Positions 3 to 30,340 of a DNA stretch of 33,782 bases are shown here, piece by piece. The translations under genes and the position numbers were made by a program. Origin of the DNA: Alphaproteobacteria bacterium (GTDB lineage: Bacteria; Pseudomonadota; Alphaproteobacteria; Rs-D84); the NCBI GenBank assembly GCA_016285415.1, contig JAEEQU010000002.1, positions 1 to 33,782 on the forward strand, in the 5' to 3' direction. Each line of letters opens with the position of its first letter. The first letter of the stretch is position 1. Under the pieces are notes generated by a model, which saw nothing but the letters and a program-made list of their open reading frames with translations, was not told the DNA's origin and searched no databases.

Positions 3-1211
3 TTAGAAATAGAATATCACTTGACCACCAATGGACATTTCTTTGTATTTATCCAATTTGGCCACACCGCCATATCCCCAAATACCTGATTCGGTTTGAT
101 AGTAATCCAAGTTTTTGCCATCGGCACTATCAAAGAACGATGTTTTCGCATACAAGTCCAATGCGAACCAATCATTTGGTTGATATCCAACGGCGGCCTT
201 GATAGATGCCTGATTATGCCAATCATAATTTCCAACCAATGCTTCTATATTCAATGTCCAATCTTCAGACAGAACACTGAACACACCAGCACCCGCTTCA
301 AAGAAGAATGTCCGTGCGGCATCATCGTCATATGCCAAGAACATCGCTTCTTCGTAACCGCCTGCGGTCTTTCCTTTGATACCATTGCCATACATTTCAT
401 CATCAAAATTCATCAACCAACCACGCGCGATACCATAAATAGTTGATTTAGAAACTTTGTATCCGAACTTTAAATCCGCGATAAATTCATTAGCAATATC
501 TTGTTGTCTTTCATAATACCCAGACAATGTAGCAATCCATTTATCATTGTCTGCGAAACGCCATTGTACCCCAGCACCATAGATATTGAAACCACTGTCA
601 TCCATTTTATCATCTGGGGTGGTGCTTTGTGACCAATCAAATTTATATTTGGTTGAATCATAACGCCCCATTAACAATACACCAAAACGATCAGTGATTC
701 CGAAACTGAAATCTTCCTTAATCGCGATTTGATCCATTGTCCATTTTGCTTTTGTATCATCCAATGTGACCCCAGCCGCCGGTGTAATTTCAAAACTGTA
801 CGACGCCTGATTAGACGCGATATCCGTTATAGAACCAAACTTTCCTTCGGTTGGTTGAAAGAACGGATGCGCCAAATAATATTTACGTTTCACGCTTTTA
901 CGAACCGATTTATTTCTGGTTGTTGTTTCGGTACGTGTTGTGGTTGCACCTTGGTATCCGTTGCTATACATCTGGCTTCTGTTTGCCGCTTGCTGACCAT
1001 AATATTGGCCATTTGATGTACCATAGGCACCATAACCACCGGTATTTGAATAAGACCGTGTCGTCGTAGAACGTGTCGTTTGATATTGCGTGTAATTTGA
1101 ATTATTCTGATTACGCGCGGCATACGACACACCCGAATAATTTGCACCAAATGCTGGCACTCCCACGGCCAACACAGCCGCAAAACCCAATGCAGGTAAA
1201 CTTAATTTCAT
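3..1211 (-). CDS. Outer-membrane beta-barrel protein (porin-like) with an N-terminal low-complexity region
   Basis: 402-aa ORF. Signal peptide MKLSLPALGFAAVLAVGVPAFG. About 90 aa rich in N/Q/S/T/Y/G follow. The C-terminal two-thirds show alternating hydrophobic/aromatic beta-strand patterns and end in the typical OMP signature ...GGQVIFYF (terminal Phe). GGAG-type RBS upstream (GGAGAAAATTAAATG). Confidence 0.6.
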   Translation of the reverse strand: MKLSLPALGFAAVLAVGVPAFGANYSGVSYAARNQNNSNYTQYQTTRSTTTRSYSNTGGYGAYGTSNGQYYGQQAANRSQMYSNGYQGATTTRTETTTRNKSVRKSVKRKYYLAHPFFQPTEGKFGSITDIASNQASYSFEITPAAGVTLDDTKAKWTMDQIAIKEDFSFGITDRFGVLLMGRYDSTKYKFDWSQSTTPDDKMDDSGFNIYGAGVQWRFADNDKWIATLSGYYERQQDIANEFIADLKFGYKVSKSTIYGIARGWLMNFDDEMYGNGIKGKTAGGYEEAMFLAYDDDAARTFFFEAGAGVFSVLSEDWTLNIEALVGNYDWHNQASIKAAVGYQPNDWFALDLYAKTSFFDSADGKNLDYYQTESGIWGYGGVAKLDKYKEMSIGGQVIFYF

Positions 1212-12164: not shown

Positions 12165-13030
12165 TGAATCACATAGATATATTCTTAGAAGCACTATCCG
12201 CGGAAAAAGGACGCAGCGCAAACACACTTGCATCATATGCAAATGATTTGCGTCATGCCGATGCCGCGATTTCCGGTGGTTTGGAAAACGCGACCGAACA
12301 AGATATCCAAAAATATCTTGCGGGGCTTGATGCACGTCCAAATTCTGTTGCCCGCAAGGCCAGCGCACTGCGCAGTTTCTATAAATTTTTGATGATTGAA
12401 CACATTATTAAAAAGAATCCTGCACAGAATCTTGAATTACCAAAACGCGGAAAACTGTTACCAAAATTACTAACCACCGAAGAAATTGAATTGTTAATAT
12501 CATCGGCGGGCGATACACGTAATTCGGTACGTTTGCGCGCAATGATAGAATTGCTGTACGCATCGGGTTTACGCGTATCGGAACTTTGCGAATTACCGAT
12601 GACCGCAATTTTAGGTGACCGATTGTTAATCCATGGCAAGGGCGCCAAAGAACGTTTTGTGCCGATGCATGACACCGCAATCGCCGCATTAAATAAATGG
12701 ATTGAAGTGCGTGGTGATAACGAATCTAAATATGTATTTCCAACCAACGCATCATCTGGCCATATAACACGTGATGGTTTTTTCAAGATTTTAAAAAAAT
12801 GTGCGGTACTGTCGGGCATTGAACCAACACGCGTAACACCGCACGTTCTGCGCCATTCATTTGCATCGCATTTATTATCGCATGGCGCAAACCTGCGCGC
12901 AATTCAAATGATGTTGGGGCACGAAGATATTTCAACAACACAAATTTATACCCATGTTCAACCTGAAAAATTGCAACAGGTTGTTTACGAACACCACCCG
13001 CTTTCTGATAAAAAGGAACACAAACAATGA
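12164..13030 (+). CDS. xerD: Site-specific tyrosine recombinase XerD (XerC/XerD family)
   Basis: N-terminal IDIFLEALSAEKGRSANTLASYANDLRH. Catalytic region HVLRHSFASHLL and LGHEDISTTQIYTHV. Start set at ATG 12164, because the upstream 29 codons in the ORF track do not resemble Xer proteins. The XerD-versus-XerC call is tentative. Confidence 0.85.
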   Translation: MNHIDIFLEALSAEKGRSANTLASYANDLRHADAAISGGLENATEQDIQKYLAGLDARPNSVARKASALRSFYKFLMIEHIIKKNPAQNLELPKRGKLLPKLLTTEEIELLISSAGDTRNSVRLRAMIELLYASGLRVSELCELPMTAILGDRLLIHGKGAKERFVPMHDTAIAALNKWIEVRGDNESKYVFPTNASSGHITRDGFFKILKKCAVLSGIEPTRVTPHVLRHSFASHLLSHGANLRAIQMMLGHEDISTTQIYTHVQPEKLQQVVYEHHPLSDKKEHKQ

Positions 13031-13521
13031 TACGGAAATGTGATGTAAAGGGCTGTCCAAAAGCCGGAACATGTCGCGCGCCCAAAACGCGTGAATTGAA
13101 AGAGTATTGGTATTTCTGCCAAGAACATGCCGCCGAATATAATAAAAATTGGAATTTCTATGACGGTATGACACCCGAAGAAATAGAAGAAGATTGGGAA
13201 ATAAGAACCTTTGGTTCACCAATAAACAAACGCAGTTCCCAAGAATCTGCGGAATATTTAAAATTCCTTAGCGATTTTATAAATGGGCGCAGCACATTTG
13301 ATAAAATTCCGCCCAAGAAAAGTATGCCCGCATCTATTATTGCGGCATTTAAGACATTGGATTTACCAATTACGGCATCATGGCGTGAAATTGGGACAAA
13401 ATATCGTGCATTGGCAAAAAAATATCACCCCGATACCGCACATGCATCAGAATCATCTGGTAAAGAATTTACAAAAATTTCATCTGCATACCAGACACTA
13501 AAAAAGCATTTTGGCAAGTAA
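13027..13521 (+). CDS. J-domain (DnaJ-like) protein with N-terminal Cys-rich segment
   Basis: 164 aa. C-terminal J domain with the HPD motif (ALAKKYHPDTAHASESSGKEFTKISSAYQTLKK). N-terminal CDVKGCPKAGTCRAP...FCQEH. The ATG overlaps the xerD stop (ATGA). Confidence 0.8.
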   Translation: MIRKCDVKGCPKAGTCRAPKTRELKEYWYFCQEHAAEYNKNWNFYDGMTPEEIEEDWEIRTFGSPINKRSSQESAEYLKFLSDFINGRSTFDKIPPKKSMPASIIAAFKTLDLPITASWREIGTKYRALAKKYHPDTAHASESSGKEFTKISSAYQTLKKHFGK

Positions 13522-14507: not shown

Positions 14508-15788
14508 ATGTTGGATATAAAATTTATTCGTGAAAATCCAGATGTGGTAAAAAATGCATGCCGTGTTAAAAATTTTCCTGATGTTGTTGACGATATTCTG
14601 TCTTTGGATGTGCGTGTACGTGAATTAAAAACAATTACACAAACAAAAACGGCCGAAAAAAATAAAATTACAAAAGAAATTCCAACTGCAACAGACAAGG
14701 CACCACTGATTGCGAAATCAAAAGAAATCAGTGAAGAAATTGCAAACGATTTGGCGGAATTGGCCGATAAAGAAACAGTGCTTACCGACCTGTTGCATCG
14801 CGTTCCACAAATTCCATCTGCGGATGCGCCAGTTGGTGCAGATGATTCTGCAAACGTGGAAATCCGCCGTATAGGCACCCCACGCACTTTTGATTTTACA
14901 CCACGTCCACAATGGGAATTGTTGGATATGAATGGCTGGTGGATGCCAGAAAAAATCGCAGGTATTTGTGGTACACGCACATATTGTCTGTGTGGCGAAT
15001 TGGCCGAATTATCTTTGGCAATTCAAACATTTGTAATTCAAAAATTGATTAGTAAAGGATTCAAATATATTGAATGTCCACCAGTAACAAAACCACAAAC
15101 CATATTTAATGCAGGACACTTTATGGGGTCTGATTTATCGGTAATGAATGATGATGTATTTATGTTAACTGGCACCGACAGATGTTTGGCCGGAACCGCG
15201 GAAATTATTTTAAATTCGCTGCATACGGATGAAATTCTACAAGAAAACGAATTACCTATTAAATACGCGGGCTTTTCAACATGTTTCAGAAAAGAAGCTG
15301 GCGCTGCGGGTCGTGACACACGTGGGCTTGTTCGTTTCCATCACTTTGACAAAGTGGAACAATATATTTTCTGTCGTCCCGAAGAAAGCGATGAAATGCA
15401 TGAACATTTGTTAAACAACCTGTGCGAAGTAGTTGAAGATTTGGAATTACCTTATCGTGTAATTGCAAATTCCACCGGCGACATGGGTTTCAACAAAGTT
15501 AAAATGAACGATGTAGAGGCATGGTTCCCATCGGAAAACGCATATCGTGAATTGGGTTCTTGTTCGTCCATTGGTCAATTCCAAGCACGCAGAACGAATA
15601 CGCGTTATCGTGAAAATGCAACAAGCGAAGTTAAATTTGTTGCAACATTGAACAATACTGGTATCGCCCTGCCCCGCGCATTAGTTCCATTGATTGAAAA
15701 CCACCAAAATGCAGATGGTTCTGTAAACATTCCAAAGAAACTGCAAGCACTGATGGGGGGGCGCACAAAAATTGGTGGAAAGCATTAA
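14508..15788 (+). CDS. serS: Serine--tRNA ligase
   Basis: 426 aa. N-terminal coiled-coil arm. Class II motifs FRKEAGAAGRDTRGLVRFHHFDKVE and NNTGIALPRALVPLIENHQ. Confidence 0.95.
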   Translation: MLDIKFIRENPDVVKNACRVKNFPDVVDDILSLDVRVRELKTITQTKTAEKNKITKEIPTATDKAPLIAKSKEISEEIANDLAELADKETVLTDLLHRVPQIPSADAPVGADDSANVEIRRIGTPRTFDFTPRPQWELLDMNGWWMPEKIAGICGTRTYCLCGELAELSLAIQTFVIQKLISKGFKYIECPPVTKPQTIFNAGHFMGSDLSVMNDDVFMLTGTDRCLAGTAEIILNSLHTDEILQENELPIKYAGFSTCFRKEAGAAGRDTRGLVRFHHFDKVEQYIFCRPEESDEMHEHLLNNLCEVVEDLELPYRVIANSTGDMGFNKVKMNDVEAWFPSENAYRELGSCSSIGQFQARRTNTRYRENATSEVKFVATLNNTGIALPRALVPLIENHQNADGSVNIPKKLQALMGGRTKIGGKH

Positions 15789-15793
15789 AAGAT

Positions 15794-15823
15794 AACCGCC
15801 CAAATGGGCGGTTTTATTTATTT
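15794..15823. terminator. Rho-independent terminator shared by convergent serS and the orphan cassette
   Basis: AACCGCCC-AAAT-GGGCGGTT hairpin (15794-15813) followed by TTATTTATTT. It lies 5 nt after the serS stop and abuts the stop (15818-15820) of the minus-strand orphan gene. Confidence 0.6.
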
Positions 15824-16270
15824 AGATCTGCGTTGTTTTTTTGAAAACAACAAAATAAAGTTATCTTTCACCCGCAAAAACGCGTATGCAAATTCCAGAA
15901 TTTCATTTTGTTTTACCAATGCGTTTTCTGGGGAATATTTGCTATACTTTTCCCATTGTTCAACCAATTCACAGAATTTACGATACTGGGCGGCTAAATC
16001 TTTATCAAACATACATTTGCGACTATTTTTATAAACGACATATGATGGCTTTTTGACCCTGCTAGCACTCAGATCCATATTTTCATATGACAAAAATTTT
16101 TTCGGATTCAACGTAACATCACACATATATTGCATTGCCGCATTTATTTCTGCATCACCTTTACCCACATTGCGATTATTTAAATCATACGCAACTAATT
16201 TAACAAAACGTTCTAAAACATCGCTAATTACGGCGTATACATCATCTTTTTTAATTTCTGCGATTGCCAT
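15818..16270 (-). CDS. Hypothetical protein (orphan cassette, downstream gene, 150 aa)
   Basis: Start set at ATG 16270 (MAIAEIKKDD...), preceded by GGAGG (GGAGGCAAATAATATG) that lies in the last codons of the upstream gene. No signal peptide or TM, no His residues, predicted helical, basic C-terminus KKQRRSK. No family recognised. Confidence 0.6.
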   Translation of the reverse strand: MAIAEIKKDDVYAVISDVLERFVKLVAYDLNNRNVGKGDAEINAAMQYMCDVTLNPKKFLSYENMDLSASRVKKPSYVVYKNSRKCMFDKDLAAQYRKFCELVEQWEKYSKYSPENALVKQNEILEFAYAFLRVKDNFILLFSKKQRRSK

Positions 16271-16271
16271 A

Positions 16272-16853
16272 TTATTTGCCTCCGCGTACATTGTACGATG
16301 CCGCGAACCAACGCGCCGGCGCCATACACATAAACACCCGTTCAAAGTTTGTTTTGTCCATTAATTGAACTTGTTTATTAAGTTTCAGTATAGTTTGTGC
16401 TGCACAGTCATCTTTACCGCCATAATATATCCATTGGTCACCAGGTTTATACATTGTGGCCATAACATGATATGAAATTCCTTCGCTTAATTGGTCTATC
16501 ACACTTAATCCTGTCCGCGCCCGCACCAGTTGTTCTACATCTTTCAGTTTTTCAGATACTGTTGGTGTGCCATAATGCACCCCTGGGGTATCATCGTCAT
16601 CTAATCCATTATACGCAATACCATACGGATAGTATAAATACTTTGTTGGATTTTTTATGACTTTACGCAGAAATTCATATGATTGACGGGTGCGATAGTA
16701 CCCTTCTACCACTTGAGTTTTTTCTGCGGGAGTAAAAAATTTTTCGCTGGCAATTCGCGATCCATCAAAATCTAATACTTTTACGACATAATTACCATAG
16801 GTCGTTAACAGACTTTGAATTGTTTTATCCATATCTATGTTTTTTCTACTCAT
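16272..16853 (-). CDS. Hypothetical protein (orphan cassette, upstream gene, 193 aa)
   Basis: ATG 16853 to TAA 16274-16272. Soluble and Tyr/Gly-rich (YYPYGIAYNGLDDDDTPGVHYGTP, KPGDQWIYYGGKDD). No family recognised. The stop is 1 nt from the start of the next gene. Confidence 0.62.
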   Translation of the reverse strand: MSRKNIDMDKTIQSLLTTYGNYVVKVLDFDGSRIASEKFFTPAEKTQVVEGYYRTRQSYEFLRKVIKNPTKYLYYPYGIAYNGLDDDDTPGVHYGTPTVSEKLKDVEQLVRARTGLSVIDQLSEGISYHVMATMYKPGDQWIYYGGKDDCAAQTILKLNKQVQLMDKTNFERVFMCMAPARWFAASYNVRGGK

Positions 16854-16885
16854 TTATTACCATTTTGTCTTTATTTGTACTGTTA

Positions 16886-16913
16886 AATATACCCTACGCC
16901 CGCAAAATGTCAA
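16886..16913 (-). promoter_or_regulatory. Putative strong sigma70-type promoter for the orphan cassette (TTGACA-16-TATATT on minus strand)
   Basis: Minus strand: consensus -35 TTGACA (16913-16908), 16-nt spacer, -10 TATATT (16891-16886), about 32 nt upstream of ATG 16853. Confidence 0.45.
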
Positions 16914-17000
16914 ATTTTTTGTAAAAATACATTATAATTTGTTGAAATCACAAAAATATAGTATAATCTATGTCCTTAGGGCAAAAAAGGGCTAAAAAAC

Positions 17001-18839
17001 ATGAAAATTAGAAATATTGCGATTATTGCGCACGTTGACCACGGGAAAACAACCTTGGTTGATAATATGTTGAAACAAGCGGGGACTTTCCGTGAAAACG
17101 AACGCGTAGAAGATCGCGTTATGGACAGTGGTGACATTGAACGCGAACGCGGAATTACCATATCTGCGAAGCCAACATCTATTTTGTGGAATGATTATAA
17201 AATTAACATCGTAGATACCCCTGGACACGCAGATTTTGGTGGCGAAGTAGAACGTATTTTATCCATGGTTGACGGTGTAGTGTTATTGGTGGACAGTGCC
17301 GAAGGCCCCCTGCCCCAGACCAAGTTCGTATTAAGCAAAGCGTTAAAATTAGGTCTACGTCCTATTGTTTGTATTAACAAAGTAGACCGGTCTGATGCCC
17401 GCCCTGATGAAGTTTTGTCCGAAACATTTGATTTATTTGATAAATTGGGTGCAGATGATGCACAACTTGATTTCCCATATCTTTACGCAGTTGGGCGTGA
17501 TGGATGGGCGGTCCGTAATTTAAATGATGAACACAAAGATTTAACCCCGCTGTTCCAACTTATTATTGATCACGTGCCAGCACCTGATTGTAATGGTTCG
17601 CGTTGTCAATTGAACGCGCCATTTACCATGCTTGCCACAACATTGGAATCAGACCCGTATGTTGGACGAATTCTGACCGGTAAAATTGAATCTGGAACTG
17701 TTCATGTTGGCCAGACGGTTAAAGCAATTAATATGAAAGGCGAATTCATAGAAAACGCCAAAATTACAAAAATTATTGAACATCGTGGAATTGAAAAAGT
17801 ATCACGCGAAAGCGCGTCTGCGGGCGATATTGTTGTTGTCGCTGGGTTTACCAAAGCGACTGTGGCAGACACATTGTGCGACCCATCGGTTACCGAACCA
17901 ATTCCGGCAATGCCAATTGATCCACCAACCCTGACCATGACGTTCTTTGTGAATACATCACCATTGGCTGGACAAAGTGGTAAAAAATTGACGTCACGTA
18001 TGATTGGTGAACGCCTGTTCAAAGAAGCAGAAACAAACATTGCTCTGCGCGTCACACAAAGTGAAAACAAAGAATCTTTCGAAGTATCGGGACGCGGCGA
18101 ATTGCAATTGGGTATTTTAATTGAAACCATGCGTCGTGAAGGTTTTGAACTGTCCGTATCACGTCCGCGCGTTGTTATGCATACCGGCGAAAACGGCGAA
18201 ATGCTGGAACCAATAGAAGAAGTCGTTGTTGATGTTGACGATGAATTCAGTGGTGTTGTTATTGAAAAAATGACAAAACGCAAAGCAACTATCACCGAAA
18301 TGAAGGCATCTGGCGGTGGCAAAACCCGCATCGTATTTTCGGCACCATCACGTGGACTGATTGGATATCTGTCTGAATTCAGAACCGATACACGTGGCAC
18401 TGGAATTATGAACCGCGTATTTGACCGTTACGATACATACCGCGGCCCAATTGTTCAATACCGGCCGGGCGTGCTGGTATCCATGGAGAAAGGAACCACC
18501 GCAACGTATGCATTGCATAATCTGGAACCACGCGGTGTATTGTTCGTCGGACCACAAACCGAAGTTTATTCGGGTATGATTATCGGTGAACACAGCAAAG
18601 AAAATGATTTGGAAGTAAACCCAATAAAAGGTAAAGAATTAACCAATGTCCGCAGTGTAACCGCCGATGAAAAATTATTCTTGGCCCCACCACGCAAAAT
18701 GTCATTGGAAGAAGCCCTGTCATACATCCAAGACGATGAATTAGTAGAGGTTACACCGGCAACAATACGTTTGCGTAAAAAAGAATTAGACAGTGGTAAA
18801 CGCAAAAAACTTGCCCGTGGCAAAGACGAAGTATTATAG
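17001..18839 (+). CDS. typA: Translational GTPase TypA/BipA
   Basis: 612 aa. G motifs AIIAHVDHGKTTLVD, DTPGHADFGGEVER and NKVD. EF-G-like domains with the BipA-specific C-terminal domain. Confidence 0.95.
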   Translation: MKIRNIAIIAHVDHGKTTLVDNMLKQAGTFRENERVEDRVMDSGDIERERGITISAKPTSILWNDYKINIVDTPGHADFGGEVERILSMVDGVVLLVDSAEGPLPQTKFVLSKALKLGLRPIVCINKVDRSDARPDEVLSETFDLFDKLGADDAQLDFPYLYAVGRDGWAVRNLNDEHKDLTPLFQLIIDHVPAPDCNGSRCQLNAPFTMLATTLESDPYVGRILTGKIESGTVHVGQTVKAINMKGEFIENAKITKIIEHRGIEKVSRESASAGDIVVVAGFTKATVADTLCDPSVTEPIPAMPIDPPTLTMTFFVNTSPLAGQSGKKLTSRMIGERLFKEAETNIALRVTQSENKESFEVSGRGELQLGILIETMRREGFELSVSRPRVVMHTGENGEMLEPIEEVVVDVDDEFSGVVIEKMTKRKATITEMKASGGGKTRIVFSAPSRGLIGYLSEFRTDTRGTGIMNRVFDRYDTYRGPIVQYRPGVLVSMEKGTTATYALHNLEPRGVLFVGPQTEVYSGMIIGEHSKENDLEVNPIKGKELTNVRSVTADEKLFLAPPRKMSLEEALSYIQDDELVEVTPATIRLRKKELDSGKRKKLARGKDEVL

Positions 18840-18882: not shown

Positions 18883-19731
18883 ATGAATACCAAACGGTTA
18901 TTCTTGTTCGCAGGATACAGTGCAGACGGCATTGTTGATGATGCGTTGGTTTATTACGTCAAAACTTTAAATAATTTCGGCGATGTGATTTTATTCCTTG
19001 ATTGTAATTGCAAAAGTTCAGAACTTTCAAAATTAAAACCGTACTGCAAGTATGTTAATGCGACACGGCATGGCGAATACGACTTCGGTTCTTATAAACG
19101 CGGTTTTCAATATGCACGCGACAATAATTTACTTGGAAAATATGATTATGTATATATTGTGAACGATTCGGTATTCGGGCCATTGTTTGATATGTCAGAT
19201 ATAATATCCAAAATGGACACAATGGAATCGGATGCCTGTGGAATTGTTATTTCAAAACATAAAACGCACTCTTTTATGGAATCTTGGTTTGTGCGTTTAA
19301 ATAAAAAAATAGTTCTATCAGATTGGTTTGATGAATTTATATCAGGTGTTACGACACAGCCAACCAAAAATCGTGTTACCGTAAAATATGAACACGGTTT
19401 AAGCAAAATAATTAGTGAACATAATCTATCATGGGACGGCGTTTATATTTGCCATGGACGCTATACATACAATAATCCAAAAAAACTGTTTAAATTGGGT
19501 TGTCCATTTATTAAAAAGGCGTGCTTTACTCGCCACAATGGCGCACTGGGGTATGATATAAAATACATATTAAAAAAATCCGACCATGTCGCAGCAACCA
19601 AGATAAAAAATACAGCAAATCGTATTTATGGTAAAAATTATATGAATTGGTTTTTAACATCAAATCCAATAAAAATCTTGGCGCGCAAAATTGGTTATGC
19701 TATAAAGAAAATAAAGAACGGTAAGATATGA
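18883..19731 (+). CDS. RgpF-like (rhamnan synthesis protein F family) polysaccharide biosynthesis protein
   Basis: 282 aa. LFLFAGYSADGIVDDALVYYVKTL, YDFGSYKRGFQY and YIVNDSVFGPLFDM resemble the conserved RgpF blocks (NDSxFGP). Confidence 0.65.
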   Translation: MNTKRLFLFAGYSADGIVDDALVYYVKTLNNFGDVILFLDCNCKSSELSKLKPYCKYVNATRHGEYDFGSYKRGFQYARDNNLLGKYDYVYIVNDSVFGPLFDMSDIISKMDTMESDACGIVISKHKTHSFMESWFVRLNKKIVLSDWFDEFISGVTTQPTKNRVTVKYEHGLSKIISEHNLSWDGVYICHGRYTYNNPKKLFKLGCPFIKKACFTRHNGALGYDIKYILKKSDHVAATKIKNTANRIYGKNYMNWFLTSNPIKILARKIGYAIKKIKNGKI

Positions 19732-20564
19732 AAAATTTAAAACGTATTGCCGCAATAACAATGGCGCGAAATGATGAATTTTTTCTTTCGCGATGGGTGG
19801 AATATTATGGTGGTGAAATCGGCATTGAAAACCTATACATTATTTTAGATGGCACCGACCAGATCGCACCAAAAAATGCAAAGGGCGCAAATATTATCAA
19901 AATGCCACATACAGATATGTCGCGTGCGACGGGCGATAAATACCGCATTGGTAAAATATCTGAATTGGCATGTGACCTGTTTAATAAATATGACATTGTT
20001 ATCGGATGCGATTCGGACGAATTTCTAATTGTTGATCCGAATACAAGGAAAACATTATCTGAATATTTATCAAACCTTAAATATTCTACAACTGTATCGG
20101 GATTGGGATTAGATGTTGGACAAAATTTATCCAAAGAAAAAAAATTAAATACAAAAAAACCAATGCTTGTGCAACGCTCGTATGCCCTGCTCTCTACACG
20201 ATACACAAAACCCGTTGTCTTATTTAAACCTGCCCACTGGGGCAGCGGTTTCCACCGCGTAAAACACCATAATTTTCATATTGATAAAAATTTATATCTT
20301 CTGCACTTTGGTGCGGTTGATATGGAAATGCTGGTATCCAAGGCACAAAAGAGAGGGCCTGATTGGGTAAACCATCTGCGCCGTCGTGGTAATGGGACAA
20401 TAAATTTGGTCACAAACAAAACACCGCATGGGGAAAGATATATAAAAATTGCCCGCATAATGCAACGTATATGTCGGCCGATTTATGCGATTGGTAAACC
20501 ATGCATGATTGGGATAAAATGGGTTGTAAAAATTCCAACACGTTTTAGAAAGTCGGGGGTATAA
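19728..20564 (+). CDS. Glycosyltransferase, GT2-like (Glyco_tranf_2_4-type)
   Basis: 278 aa. AAITMARNDEFFLSRWVEYYGGEIGIENLYIILDGTD and a DSDEF (DxD-like) motif. The ATG overlaps the upstream stop (ATGA). Confidence 0.6.
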   Translation: MKNLKRIAAITMARNDEFFLSRWVEYYGGEIGIENLYIILDGTDQIAPKNAKGANIIKMPHTDMSRATGDKYRIGKISELACDLFNKYDIVIGCDSDEFLIVDPNTRKTLSEYLSNLKYSTTVSGLGLDVGQNLSKEKKLNTKKPMLVQRSYALLSTRYTKPVVLFKPAHWGSGFHRVKHHNFHIDKNLYLLHFGAVDMEMLVSKAQKRGPDWVNHLRRRGNGTINLVTNKTPHGERYIKIARIMQRICRPIYAIGKPCMIGIKWVVKIPTRFRKSGV

Positions 20565-20565
20565 C

Positions 20566-21579
20566 ATGGGCACACCCAAAAAGATAGACATTGTTTATAG
20601 ATGGGTAGATGGGTCAGATAAAAAATGGCAGGCCGAAAAAGATAAATGGTATAAAAAAATAACCGGCAAAACCCCAATATATAAAGGTTCTGCAACAACC
20701 GAACGTTTCCGCAATAATGACGAATTAAAATATTCACTGCGTTCGGTCGCAGAATGTGCGCCATGGATTAATCATATTTATATCATAACTGGATTTAACC
20801 AGGTTCCAAAATGGCTAAACACGAAACACCCAAAAATAACCATCGTTTCACACGAAGAAATTATGCCAGCGGATGCCCTGCCAACATTTAATTCAACCGC
20901 CATTGAAATGTGTATTCCAAACATCAAAAATTTGTCTGAACATTTTATTCAAATGGCTGACGACATGTTTTTTAATAAACCGGTTAAACCAAGTTTTTTC
21001 TATGACCGCCTTGGACGTGCCAAGGTAAGTTATAATGCATGGTTACATCATCCAAAAAATATTGATAATTGGTTGGCAAAATCAGACGGATGGACAAGGC
21101 GTCTTATACTCGCAGAAATGAAACTCAAAGAACTGTTTGGCAAAAATGTTTTCTTTGCCCGTCCATCACATGGAATTGACCCATATCTAAAATCTGCATG
21201 GTTGGAATATCGTAATCATCCAAAAATGAAACCATTAATTGATAAACAAATTTACAATAAATTCCGCAGTGAATCTGAATTTCCATGTTGGATGTTTTGC
21301 CTATATGCGTTCGTAACAAACCGTGCGGTTCTATATCATTCACGGGCACGCAAATATGGACACCGTAAAATCATAAACTTTATTTATAACATATTGCATT
21401 TCAGACGTATTCGCAGATCTAATATTGTATGTGAAAATGTCGTTCTTGCCCAAAAGGCCATTGCAACGGCGACAACATTTTGCATAAATGACGGGCCAAA
21501 CAATACCCCGGAAATATTACAACAAAACACCGATTTTTTGGAAAAGCGTTTTCCGAATAAATCACCATTTGAAAAATAA
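20566..21579 (+). CDS. Stealth-family capsular polysaccharide hexose-1-phosphoryltransferase
   Basis: 337 aa. Stealth CR1 is IDIVYRWVDGSDKKW. CR2 is ERFRNNDELKYSLRSVAECAPWINHIYIITGFNQVPKWLN...ITIVSHEEIMPADALPTFNSTAIE...LSEHFIQMADDMFF. Downstream CR3/CR4-like blocks are present. GGGGG RBS. Confidence 0.9.
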   Translation: MGTPKKIDIVYRWVDGSDKKWQAEKDKWYKKITGKTPIYKGSATTERFRNNDELKYSLRSVAECAPWINHIYIITGFNQVPKWLNTKHPKITIVSHEEIMPADALPTFNSTAIEMCIPNIKNLSEHFIQMADDMFFNKPVKPSFFYDRLGRAKVSYNAWLHHPKNIDNWLAKSDGWTRRLILAEMKLKELFGKNVFFARPSHGIDPYLKSAWLEYRNHPKMKPLIDKQIYNKFRSESEFPCWMFCLYAFVTNRAVLYHSRARKYGHRKIINFIYNILHFRRIRRSNIVCENVVLAQKAIATATTFCINDGPNNTPEILQQNTDFLEKRFPNKSPFEK

Positions 21580-28504: not shown

Positions 28505-28996
28505 ATGGCAACACGCATTTTGGGCATAGACCCAGGGCTTTTACATACAGGTTGGGCGGTAATTGATACCGCCGGTTCATCCCGTCATTATGTGGCCAGT
28601 GGTGTTATATTACCCAAGAAAACTGGTCCACTGGCCGAACGTCTTGCCATTATTTTTAACGAGGTTTCAAAACTCTGCGATACATTTTCGCCAAATGAAT
28701 GCAGTATGGAAATAACCTTTGTAAATAAAAACCCAACAACAACACTTATACTTGGACATGCACGCGCCGCGGCAATGGTTGCTATTGCGGTCAAAGAGAT
28801 TCCGATATCTGAATACGAACCAAATCGCATAAAAAAGATTTTAACAGGCGGTGGACATGCCGACAAAACGGCGGTTGATAAAATGGTACGTATATTATTG
28901 CCAACGGCGAATCCGAAAACCGCGGACGAAAGCGATGCTATCGCAATCGCATTGGCCCACGCAAACACAACAAACTTCGCAAAATTTATTTCATAA
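28505..28996 (+). CDS. ruvC: Crossover junction endodeoxyribonuclease RuvC
   Basis: 163 aa. ILGIDPGLLHTGWAVID (catalytic Asp), SMEITFVNKN (Glu), and DESDAIAIALAHA (catalytic Asp pair). Confidence 0.93.
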   Translation: MATRILGIDPGLLHTGWAVIDTAGSSRHYVASGVILPKKTGPLAERLAIIFNEVSKLCDTFSPNECSMEITFVNKNPTTTLILGHARAAAMVAIAVKEIPISEYEPNRIKKILTGGGHADKTAVDKMVRILLPTANPKTADESDAIAIALAHANTTNFAKFIS

Positions 28997-29117: not shown

Positions 29118-29576
29118 ATGGCAAAAATACAAGAAATTGGTTTTCACGCAACATTTTTAGTTCCAACCTATGATTTAGGTGATAAAACAAGATTTATTAC
29201 CACCCAAAACGCATATTCAATTGATAACAAAGCTTATAAATCAATAGATGTTTGGCTGATTCAGGCTGTTGAAGGTCAAGAAACAGAATCTATGTTACAA
29301 TCTTTAAGACAAGAACAATTAAATGGCGAAAAAGAAATACGACGCACAAAAAAAGACGCAAGTTTACCTGCATACGAAAAAGATAAAAGAATAGGTTTTC
29401 TTAGACATTATGCAAAACTGATGAAAACCTATTTAACAGATTATTATCGTGGCGATATGCAACACACGCCAGATCCAGAATTTATAGATATTGCAAAATC
29501 TAATCTGGCCACCATAAATTGTAATGTGGACAAGGCAATATATTTATGTGGAATAAGTCATCTTATTGAACGATAA
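29118..29576 (+). CDS. Hypothetical protein (orphan, 152 aa)
   Basis: Strong RBS (AAAGGGAGTAGAAAATG). No signal peptide or TM. Charged central region (EQLNGEKEIRRTKKD). No family recognised. AT-rich, with 4 of 8 Arg codons AGA. Confidence 0.6.
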   Translation: MAKIQEIGFHATFLVPTYDLGDKTRFITTQNAYSIDNKAYKSIDVWLIQAVEGQETESMLQSLRQEQLNGEKEIRRTKKDASLPAYEKDKRIGFLRHYAKLMKTYLTDYYRGDMQHTPDPEFIDIAKSNLATINCNVDKAIYLCGISHLIER

Positions 29577-29623: not shown

Positions 29624-30340
29624 TTATGCCGCGGCGGTAAATACTTTTTGAACATCGTCGTTGGCATCCAATGCATCAACAAGACGTTCAACTTTTTCCC
29701 ATGTTTCTTCATCAACATCCATCGGCATATTTGGAATCCATGTCAATTCCGCGCTTTCTGGTTCACCCAAAACATCTGCGATTTTCTTTTGAACATTCAT
29801 AAAATCGTCTGGTTTTGTTGTGATGATAAAACCCTCTTCGGTTGTTTCCAAATTATCTGCATCCGCGTCCATAATGATTTCCATCATTTCATCTTCGGTT
29901 TTACCAATAGACGATGGATACAAAATTTGGCCGGCACGTGTGAACATAAATGCAACACTGCCCTCTTCGCCCATATTACCACCATGCTTGGAAAAGATAT
30001 TACGAACCTCTGGCACGGTGCGACGTGGATTATCGGTTAATGCCTCTACAATAATTGGCACTGCACCTGGACCGTAACCTTCGTACCGAACAGAAACATA
30101 ACTTTCGGTATTTGAACCCGATGCCTTTTCAATTGCACGTTTAATATTATCATTCGGCATAGAATTTTTACGTGCCTGTAAAATAGCCAAACGTAGGCGC
30201 GGGTTATTATCGGGATTTTTATCACCCAATTTCGCCGCCATAGTAATTTCACGCGCCAATTTTGTAAACAAACCACTGCGCGCTGCATCCGCCAGCCCCT
30301 TTTTGTGCTGAATATTATGCCATTTGCTGTGTCCACTCAT
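29624..30340 (-). CDS. yebC: YebC/PmpR-family DNA-binding transcriptional regulator
   Basis: 238 aa. N-terminal MSGHSKWHNIQHKKG and the family-wide conserved architecture. Confidence 0.93.
   Translation of the reverse strand: MSGHSKWHNIQHKKGLADAARSGLFTKLAREITMAAKLGDKNPDNNPRLRLAILQARKNSMPNDNIKRAIEKASGSNTESYVSVRYEGYGPGAVPIIVEALTDNPRRTVPEVRNIFSKHGGNMGEEGSVAFMFTRAGQILYPSSIGKTEDEMMEIIMDADADNLETTEEGFIITTKPDDFMNVQKKIADVLGEPESAELTWIPNMPMDVDEETWEKVERLVDALDANDDVQKVFTAAA

Follow-up and report, generated by a model that had tools for sequence, protein, structure and literature searches.

Evidence for a vertically inherited, lineage-restricted two-gene operon in the typA–serS slot of an uncultured gut alphaproteobacterial lineage

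The DNA analysed here is a stretch of 33,782 nucleotides (nt) (the window; contig JAEEQU010000002.1 of the Alphaproteobacteria bacterium assembly GCA_016285415.1, positions 1 to 33,782 of the forward strand), in which two small genes, ORF1 and ORF2, lie side by side between typA and serS. We give a probability of roughly 0.6 to the reading that they form a vertically inherited, lineage-restricted bicistronic operon in a fixed slot between these two genes in an uncultured alphaproteobacterial lineage of the ruminant gut. In the best-supported account the ORF1 family is the constant component of the slot and ORF2 is a clade-specific, translationally coupled partner. We do not regard the pair as a mobile cassette of toxin-antitoxin or defence type. 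A literature search found no paper that mentions the assemblies or accessions.

ORF1 (16272–16853, minus strand; 193 aa) is the first gene of the pair and the anchor of the slot, and ORF2 (15818–16270, minus strand; 150 aa) follows it. Both are on the strand opposite to the flanking genes serS (14508–15788, plus strand) and typA (17001–18839, plus strand), and the two genes reported by the first-pass annotation, which was made from the window sequence without database searches, are confirmed. An indexed search of 5.8 billion proteins returned four ORF1 clusters and three ORF2 clusters with 68–76% identity, and an exhaustive profile search of 1.84 billion proteins returned 29 ORF1-family representatives, nearly all of which are 170–222 aa long and match over their full length at ~30% identity. 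A single species-representative genome was matched ('MAG: Alphaproteobacteria bacterium RGIG8096', from water-buffalo rumen), and all other sources of ORF1 relatives are ruminant or gut metagenomes; relatives with readable context either share the backbone synteny or have a ruminant or gut metagenome origin. As judged from these searches, ORF1 belongs to a taxonomically restricted orphan gene family with no homolog outside one narrow lineage after exhaustive search. Uncultured Alphaproteobacteria of the order RF32, to which the window lineage may belong, are reported to have reduced genomes of ~1.6 Mb and to be characteristic of the ruminant gut (PMC8199421). We note that positions 138–157 of the ORF1 profile are matched nine times by a 939-aa protein (P0032), probably a repeat protein with chance matches to the W-x-Y-Y segment.

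The location of the ORF1 family is nearly constant. A family member occupies the typA–serS slot in 12 of the 14 distinct contexts sampled; for the window clade (L001–L010), L014–L019, L022 and L025–L029, typA, serS or both were confirmed as flanking genes. The backbone reads MutL-GreA-LptF-XerD-DnaJ-like-TrxB-SerS, then the slot, then TypA, and the neighbours of the slot loci are XerD, DnaJ-like, TrxB, SerS, TypA, polysaccharide genes, RecA, SecB, MutL, GreA, LptF and RuvABC. The window itself is ordinary chromosome, encoding FtsK, SecDF, MutL, GreA, LptF, XerD, TrxB, SerS, TypA and polysaccharide genes together with RecA, SecB, MltA, RuvC, YebC, RuvA and MnmE, and no RNA family in Rfam was matched in it. 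The accessory status proposed at first pass is not borne out for ORF1, as a family gene fills the slot across the sampled relatives; conservation at this position, which was to count against that proposal, is seen for ORF1 in the sampled members of the lineage but not for ORF2, which is restricted to one clade.

What accompanies the anchor is much less constant. Homologs of ORF2 were found only beside ORF1, in the clade of the window. Elsewhere the slot contains the anchor alone (L014, L015, L027/28 and L029), up157 and the anchor (L016), up149, the anchor and dn117 (L017), up157a, up157b and the anchor (L018), an upstream gene of at least 88 aa and the anchor (L019), up287, the anchor and dn318 (L022), or the anchor followed by dn123, dn264 and dn139 (L026). 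There are at least seven slot layouts among genomes whose SerS proteins are at least 85% identical, which amounts to natural replication. The gaps between slot genes are 1–64 nt and contain no repeats. None of the partner genes has a Pfam match, and the PADLOC search of ten other slot proteins gave only two matches, both at chance level (E = 0.011 and 0.022).

One partner family besides ORF2 recurs, in L017 (2296–2745), L022 (168–1031) and L026 (1059–1853). Its unit is ~140 aa, occurring once in L017 and as an internal duplication in L022 and in L026, and the L017 up149 protein matches both halves of L022 up287 (E = 1e-6 and 5e-5), which in turn is 32% identical to L026 dn264 (E = 1e-30). This second family precedes the anchor in two lineages and follows it in one. 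Turnover can be seen at short range as well: the genes upstream of the anchor in L018 (5454–5927) and L019 (2–268) are not recognisably related although the SerS proteins are 95% and the anchors 70% identical, so partner replacement has been faster than anchor divergence. Membership of ORF2 in the second partner family was considered and rejected (z = 0.0), as was a 'C-x-K helix' motif, picked out by eye, that would have linked the C-terminal half of ORF2 to the remaining partners (z ~0 for all).

Foreign origin and insertion into a conserved backbone had been suggested from the base composition of the pair, and this is not supported. The overall GC content is indeed lower (0.39 and 0.33 for the pair, vs 0.40 for serS and 0.44 for typA), but it is not a sign of foreign DNA. 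At third codon positions (GC3) the pair has values of 0.31 and 0.30, compared with 0.31 for serS and 0.30 for trxB, and the deficit is confined to codon positions 1 and 2; it therefore reflects proteins rich in Lys, Tyr and Asn. Flanking repeats were not found, and neither were phage, plasmid or viral relatives of the pair when these were searched for. Synonymous divergence (dS) is 0.5–1.1 for the slot genes vs 0.35–0.85 for the flanking genes, and this agreement points to vertical inheritance.

The slot genes nonetheless change much faster than their neighbours at the protein level. Between L001 and the window, the four flanking genes are 95–97% identical and ORF1 and ORF2 only ~75%. The ratio of non-synonymous to synonymous divergence (dN/dS) is ~0.22 for ORF1 and ~0.13 for ORF2, compared with 0.005–0.045 for the flanking genes; the neighbouring polysaccharide genes have values of 0.10–0.15. 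Ratios of 0.13–0.22 indicate purifying selection and functional genes, and no segment of ORF1 or ORF2 with dN/dS above 1 was seen, the orthologs being too few for site models of positive selection. The identity of ORF1 falls monotonically with that of SerS, being ~70% where SerS is 95–97% identical and 27–37% where SerS is 85–92% identical, which corresponds to ORF1 diverging ~10 times as fast as SerS (a non-synonymous rate ratio from a cross-locus comparison). Because dS, dN/dS and the tracking of SerS by ORF1 agree, the sequence comparisons indicate that the pair is inherited rather than imported, and that it is functional but loosely constrained. We considered whether ORF1 itself has been swapped as a cassette, as the presence in L017 of an ORF1 type with 34% identity beside a TypA with 97.7% identity might suggest. 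We rejected this as unnecessary, since ORF1 tracks SerS at a rate ratio of ~10 and TypA changes too little to be used as a clock.

The expression signals described at first pass hold up well and can be followed across relatives. A near-consensus sigma-70-type promoter, TTGACA-16-TATATT, is predicted upstream of ORF1 (16886–16913, minus strand); 11 of its 12 positions match and no other site in the region does better, while the region shows no overall excess of promoter-like sites (nine observed vs 7.4 expected). The TTGACA box is at the equivalent position in six of eight aligned loci (the window, L006, L010, L015, L016 and L018), regardless of which gene comes first in the slot. When the intergenic regions between typA and the slot are aligned across all cassette types, the single invariant stretch is TTGTTG-17-TATAAT on the typA strand (16939–16967, plus strand), which we assign as the putative typA promoter, and the TTGACA box of the slot is ~25 nt past this block. 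The operon would have a strong sigma-70 promoter of its own, oriented back-to-back with that of typA. The same block bears on a gene call in L025 (99–122), where the annotated start of P0017 is only 23 nt past it; because of this spacing the 20-residue N-terminal extension of P0017 is probably over-called.

The two genes are tightly coupled, with the Shine-Dalgarno sequence of ORF2 supplied by the end of ORF1 as had been proposed (junction GGAGGCAAATAATATG, 1-nt gap). The end of ORF1 reads ...GGA GGC AAA TAA and the ATG of ORF2 follows one base on, such that the GGAGG (16279–16283, minus strand) is formed by the C-terminal Gly-Gly codons of ORF1. This junction is kept as GGNGG-N-AAATAATATGG in the four orthologous loci (the window, L001, L006 and L010), and its conservation accounts for the invariance of ORF1 residues G191, G192 and K193 within the clade; the GGK terminus is absent from distant family members without ORF2. 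Coupling would link the translation of ORF2 to that of ORF1, so that the two proteins would be made in roughly stoichiometric amounts. At the other end is a hairpin (15794–15813) which scores as a terminator on both strands and is common to ORF2 and serS. It was found in all 13 loci examined, in stems with compensatory changes (CCGCCC/GGGCGG, ACGCCC/GGGCGT, TCACCC/GGGTGA, GACCGTTC/GAACGGTC and TGCCC/GGGCA). Inspection of the slot for flanking direct repeats or att sites gave nothing convincing, and no strong palindrome that might act as an operator was found overlapping the slot promoter.

The products are small basic proteins of no recognisable family. Neither has a segment resembling a transmembrane helix (maximal Kyte-Doolittle hydropathy over 19 residues, 0.64 and 1.21), and neither has a match in Pfam, NCBIfam, PHROGs or PADLOC, in agreement with what had been noted from the sequences; the same four resources gave no recurrent match for the 29 ORF1 relatives or for the partner genes, and no PDB sequence profile matched ORF1, ORF2 or the ORF1 relatives. 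Two remarks on composition stand only in part. ORF1 had been called rich in Tyr, Gly and Asp, and this is true of Tyr (8.3% vs 3.4% background), marginal for Asp (7.3 vs 6.1) and incorrect for Gly (7.3 vs 7.6), with Tyr also raised in ORF2 (6.7% vs 3.4%). Likewise ORF2 of the window lacks His, but its orthologs contain it. The isoelectric points (pI) are 8.9 and 9.2, and most members of the ORF1 family are between 8.4 and 9.4. ORF1 is soluble; ORF2 is Lys-rich, all-helical in its model, and has an invariant basic C-terminal tail. Shared motifs of the ORF1 family are I-D-x-D-K-T-I, [DNE]PKKYLY, L-S-E..H-V, W-x-Y, D..A-E.I-L.L-N-K, F-A and a basic tail, in which the charge is conserved and the sequence is not.

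AlphaFold models were built on 4-sequence alignments for both proteins. That of ORF1 (predicted local distance difference test score, pLDDT, of 54) has a putative N-terminal two-helix hairpin (helices 8–36 and 42–67) followed by an alpha/beta part, and that of ORF2 (pLDDT 68, predicted template modelling score 0.66) is predicted to be all-helical. Foldseek searches of the models against PDB and BFVD returned only noise, with best E values of ~1 (e.g. a HEPN chain at E = 1.6 and TM-score 0.33). With no detectable relative in any curated resource, the families are new, at the level of sequence only; a new kind of biological system is not indicated.

There are hints of a module shared between the anchor and its partners. 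In ORF1 the candidate hairpin spans residues 7–74 (16632–16835, minus strand) and ends in NPTKYLY, as indicated by the low-confidence model and by hhalign. Alignment of the ORF1-family profile with ORF2 by hhalign pairs these residues colinearly with ORF2 residues 10–61 (16088–16243, minus strand), with NPKKYLY opposite LNPKKFLSY. The score of 23.5 compares with 12.2 ± 2.4 for column shuffles, one of 300 of which reaches it, and with a mean of 12.1 and a maximum of 17.6 for 65 control tiles of real proteins from the window; shuffling of residues gives z = 6.3 for ORF2 and z = 3.7 for L017 up149, with controls at z ~0. The second partner family matches in the same way (ORF1 profile positions 1–76 to 1–64, score 25.9), compared with 11.7 ± 2.1 for shuffles, none of 80 reaching the observed score, and 11.5 for the reversed profile. 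From these alignments we put the chance that the hairpin match is true homology at even or slightly better, and they hint that partners arise from, or dock onto, the N-terminal module of ORF1.

A mechanism can be outlined on this basis. In both ORF2 and the second partner family the N-terminus would form a two-helix hairpin that either descends from the one in ORF1 or matches it. ORF1 and ORF2, both soluble and basic, would most likely associate by way of their hairpins as a heteromer in the cytoplasm. The anchor would supply a conserved activity through its C-terminal alpha/beta domain, which the partner might modify.

Several observations weigh against the picture of a fixed slot with an anchor and coupled partners. 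In L011 (205–732), L012 (653–1195) and L013 (354–896) the ORF1-family gene is out of the slot and precedes a convergent cluster of YjbR and flavodoxin genes; it could be a paralog there, or a copy that has moved, in another lineage. The probabilities reported by hhalign itself for the hairpin matches are only 9–15% (9–12% for ORF2), the reversed ORF2 profile still scores 18.5, such that helix periodicity adds to the score, and no match is seen between ORF2 and the second partner family. Confidence in the structure models is low (pLDDT 54 and 68), with fold searches giving noise only, and heteromer formation is something we purely infer. Fast evolution with turnover of partners is also expected of a locus engaged in conflict. 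Finally, all of the relatives are from short metagenome contigs, the scope of which does not extend to copy number per genome or to the slots of outgroups.

Of the other explanations, the one put forward at first pass was a toxin-antitoxin, abortive-infection or small anti-phage module, acquired horizontally, in which a toxic or effector protein would be paired with one that neutralises or senses. As in type II toxin-antitoxin operons, there are two small, adjacent, coupled and co-transcribed genes with their own single promoter and single terminator (a 1-nt gap, with the Shine-Dalgarno sequence in ORF1), both products are cytoplasmic, and orphan sequences that evolve faster than the flanks and partners that turn over between relatives would suit such a module. 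However, the genes, of 193 and 150 aa, are rather large for such operons and no toxin or antitoxin fold is recognisable. For the pair, searches of Pfam, NCBIfam and PADLOC at E ≤ 1 and of PDB sequences yielded no match to a known toxin superfamily (RelE/ParE, MazF/CcdB, PIN, HipA, Doc/Fic, HicA, GNAT, HEPN and others were considered), a DNA-binding antitoxin domain (RHH, HTH, AbrB or Phd/YefM) was not found either, and no palindromic operator is evident at the promoter. ORF1 and ORF2 match no PADLOC-DB v2 profile, eight further slot proteins and the distant anchors likewise gave no real PADLOC match, and the neighbours are housekeeping genes rather than a defence island. The co-occurrence is not obligate, as ORF1 is found without ORF2 or any partner and stands alone in at least four lineages, which shows that the two genes are not mutually dependent, and the distribution is that of a fixed, vertically inherited locus and not patchy or mobile, with no phage or plasmid copies among those searched for. 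We consider this explanation quite unlikely. The pair could instead belong to a polymorphic effector-type family directed at a host, protist or competitor, with the hairpin serving in targeting or export, a variable C-terminal cargo, the basic tail as secretion signal and ORF2 as co-effector or chaperone. Three otherwise different slot families that share an N-terminal module, the rapid turnover of C-terminal partners, basic C-termini in which charge is kept and sequence is not, and a gut-restricted lineage with a probably reduced genome would all fit, but such tails are unspecific, there is no signal peptide, and toxin, enzyme or eukaryote-like domains were not found. Secretion-system genes were not found in the 34-kb window or the related loci, the whole genome being outside that scope. 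Selection is purifying overall with no segment at dN/dS above 1, and the C-terminal domain of the anchor is conserved family-wide, unlike those of polymorphic toxins; we give an effector role a low probability.

A lineage-specific, abundant, housekeeping-like cytoplasmic factor (nucleic-acid-binding, or nucleoid- or ribosome-associated), to which ORF2 is a recent and weakly constrained addition, is unlikely. The anchor is universal at a single locus, where a strong promoter next to typA is conserved, both proteins are basic, soluble and Tyr-/Lys-rich, most of the family has a pI in the same basic range, and selection is purifying. Such factors, however, rarely fall to ~30% identity while SerS remains 85–92% identical, a basic pI is common in AT-rich genomes, and ORF2 is more constrained than ORF1 (dN/dS 0.13 vs 0.22) and has a conserved coupling junction, which does not suit a loose add-on. 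That the genes are spurious or decaying ORFs without function is barely conceivable and is effectively refuted by the selection analysis; curated libraries hold no homologs and the taxonomic range is narrow, but the frames are intact in every ortholog, dN/dS is 0.13–0.22 at dS of 0.5–1.1, the family motifs are invariant at ~30% identity, and the Shine-Dalgarno sequence, promoter and terminator are conserved. A more ambitious proposal is that the slot is the sole locus, in ruminant-gut Alphaproteobacteria with reduced genomes, of an undescribed modular system of an anchor and changing partners, in which the common N-terminal hairpin would serve in assembly or targeting and local duplication and divergence would exchange the C-terminal domains, for use in interbacterial, phage or host-protist conflict. 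It would be analogous, and unrelated, to the PE/PPE, Esx and LXG families, and we think it quite improbable.

That analogy rests on tandem genes, a common N-terminal helical hairpin with different C-termini, coupled pairs, fast evolution and local turnover, as in PE/PPE, WXG100/Esx and LXG proteins with their helical partners. Such proteins rely on the type VII secretion of Actinobacteria and Firmicutes. The slot proteins differ from them in having no sequence or fold match and no WXG or YxxxD/E motif, in their alphaproteobacterial host, and in that no secretion genes are in view. Polymorphic toxin and immunity domains (PAAR, Rhs, LXG, MAFB, CdiA and others) were not detected in any slot protein. 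The slot resembles defence islands and hotspots of accessory turnover in its conserved core flanks and variable content among close relatives, but what varies is a set of one to four small orphan genes, the same anchor family being present every time, and known defence genes, integrases, tRNA genes and repeats were not found at the slot. It has a common conserved promoter as would an integron-like cassette array, but its gaps of 1–64 nt have no repeats, and the only recombinase is the housekeeping xerD, three genes away.

Some features of the surrounding loci are worth recording. The DnaJ-like gene of the backbone (13027–13521, plus strand) encodes a conserved 164-aa protein in which a Cys-rich N-terminus is combined with a DnaJ domain at the C-terminus; the gene begins 4 nt inside the end of xerD, overlapping its stop, and is syntenic in all related loci. 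In L001 (798–2107, minus strand) serS is called as two ORFs of 130 and 311 aa, which indicates a frameshift or an assembly error in the metagenome contig. A 402-aa ORF at the window edge (3–1211, minus strand) matches no Pfam family. Between ruvC (28505–28996) and yebC (29624–30340, minus strand) is a 152-aa ORF without a Pfam match (29118–29576, plus strand), which has a GC content of 0.32 and GC3 of 0.18 within a surrounding 500 nt of GC 0.29; its composition is far more anomalous than that of the ORF1–ORF2 pair, and this makes it a better candidate for recent acquisition. Next to typA, genes for RgpF-like, GT2_4 and Stealth proteins (window 18883–21579, plus strand; L010 5269–7950) are 78%, 79% and 56% identical between L010 and the window, compared with 98.7% for TypA. 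Such rapid divergence suggests that the surface-polysaccharide locus is variable.

In their narrow lineage, occurrence in metagenomes only, absence of annotation and purifying selection, the slot genes are like other orphan families of uncultivated bacteria, and since metagenomes commonly contain orphan families as small as this one, their significance is limited until there is a function or a confident fold. The locus differs from most of these in its well-defined anatomy, with a fixed slot, conserved signals, a constant anchor, swapping partners and a possible shared module, and this makes it more than a routine hypothetical pair. If the anchor-plus-partner architecture is true, two or three protein families without known relatives would be defined, and the slot would be a compact case of the birth and replacement of small proteins at one chromosomal site, furnished with conserved expression signals, in a reduced-genome lineage of uncultured gut symbionts that is abundant in ruminants.

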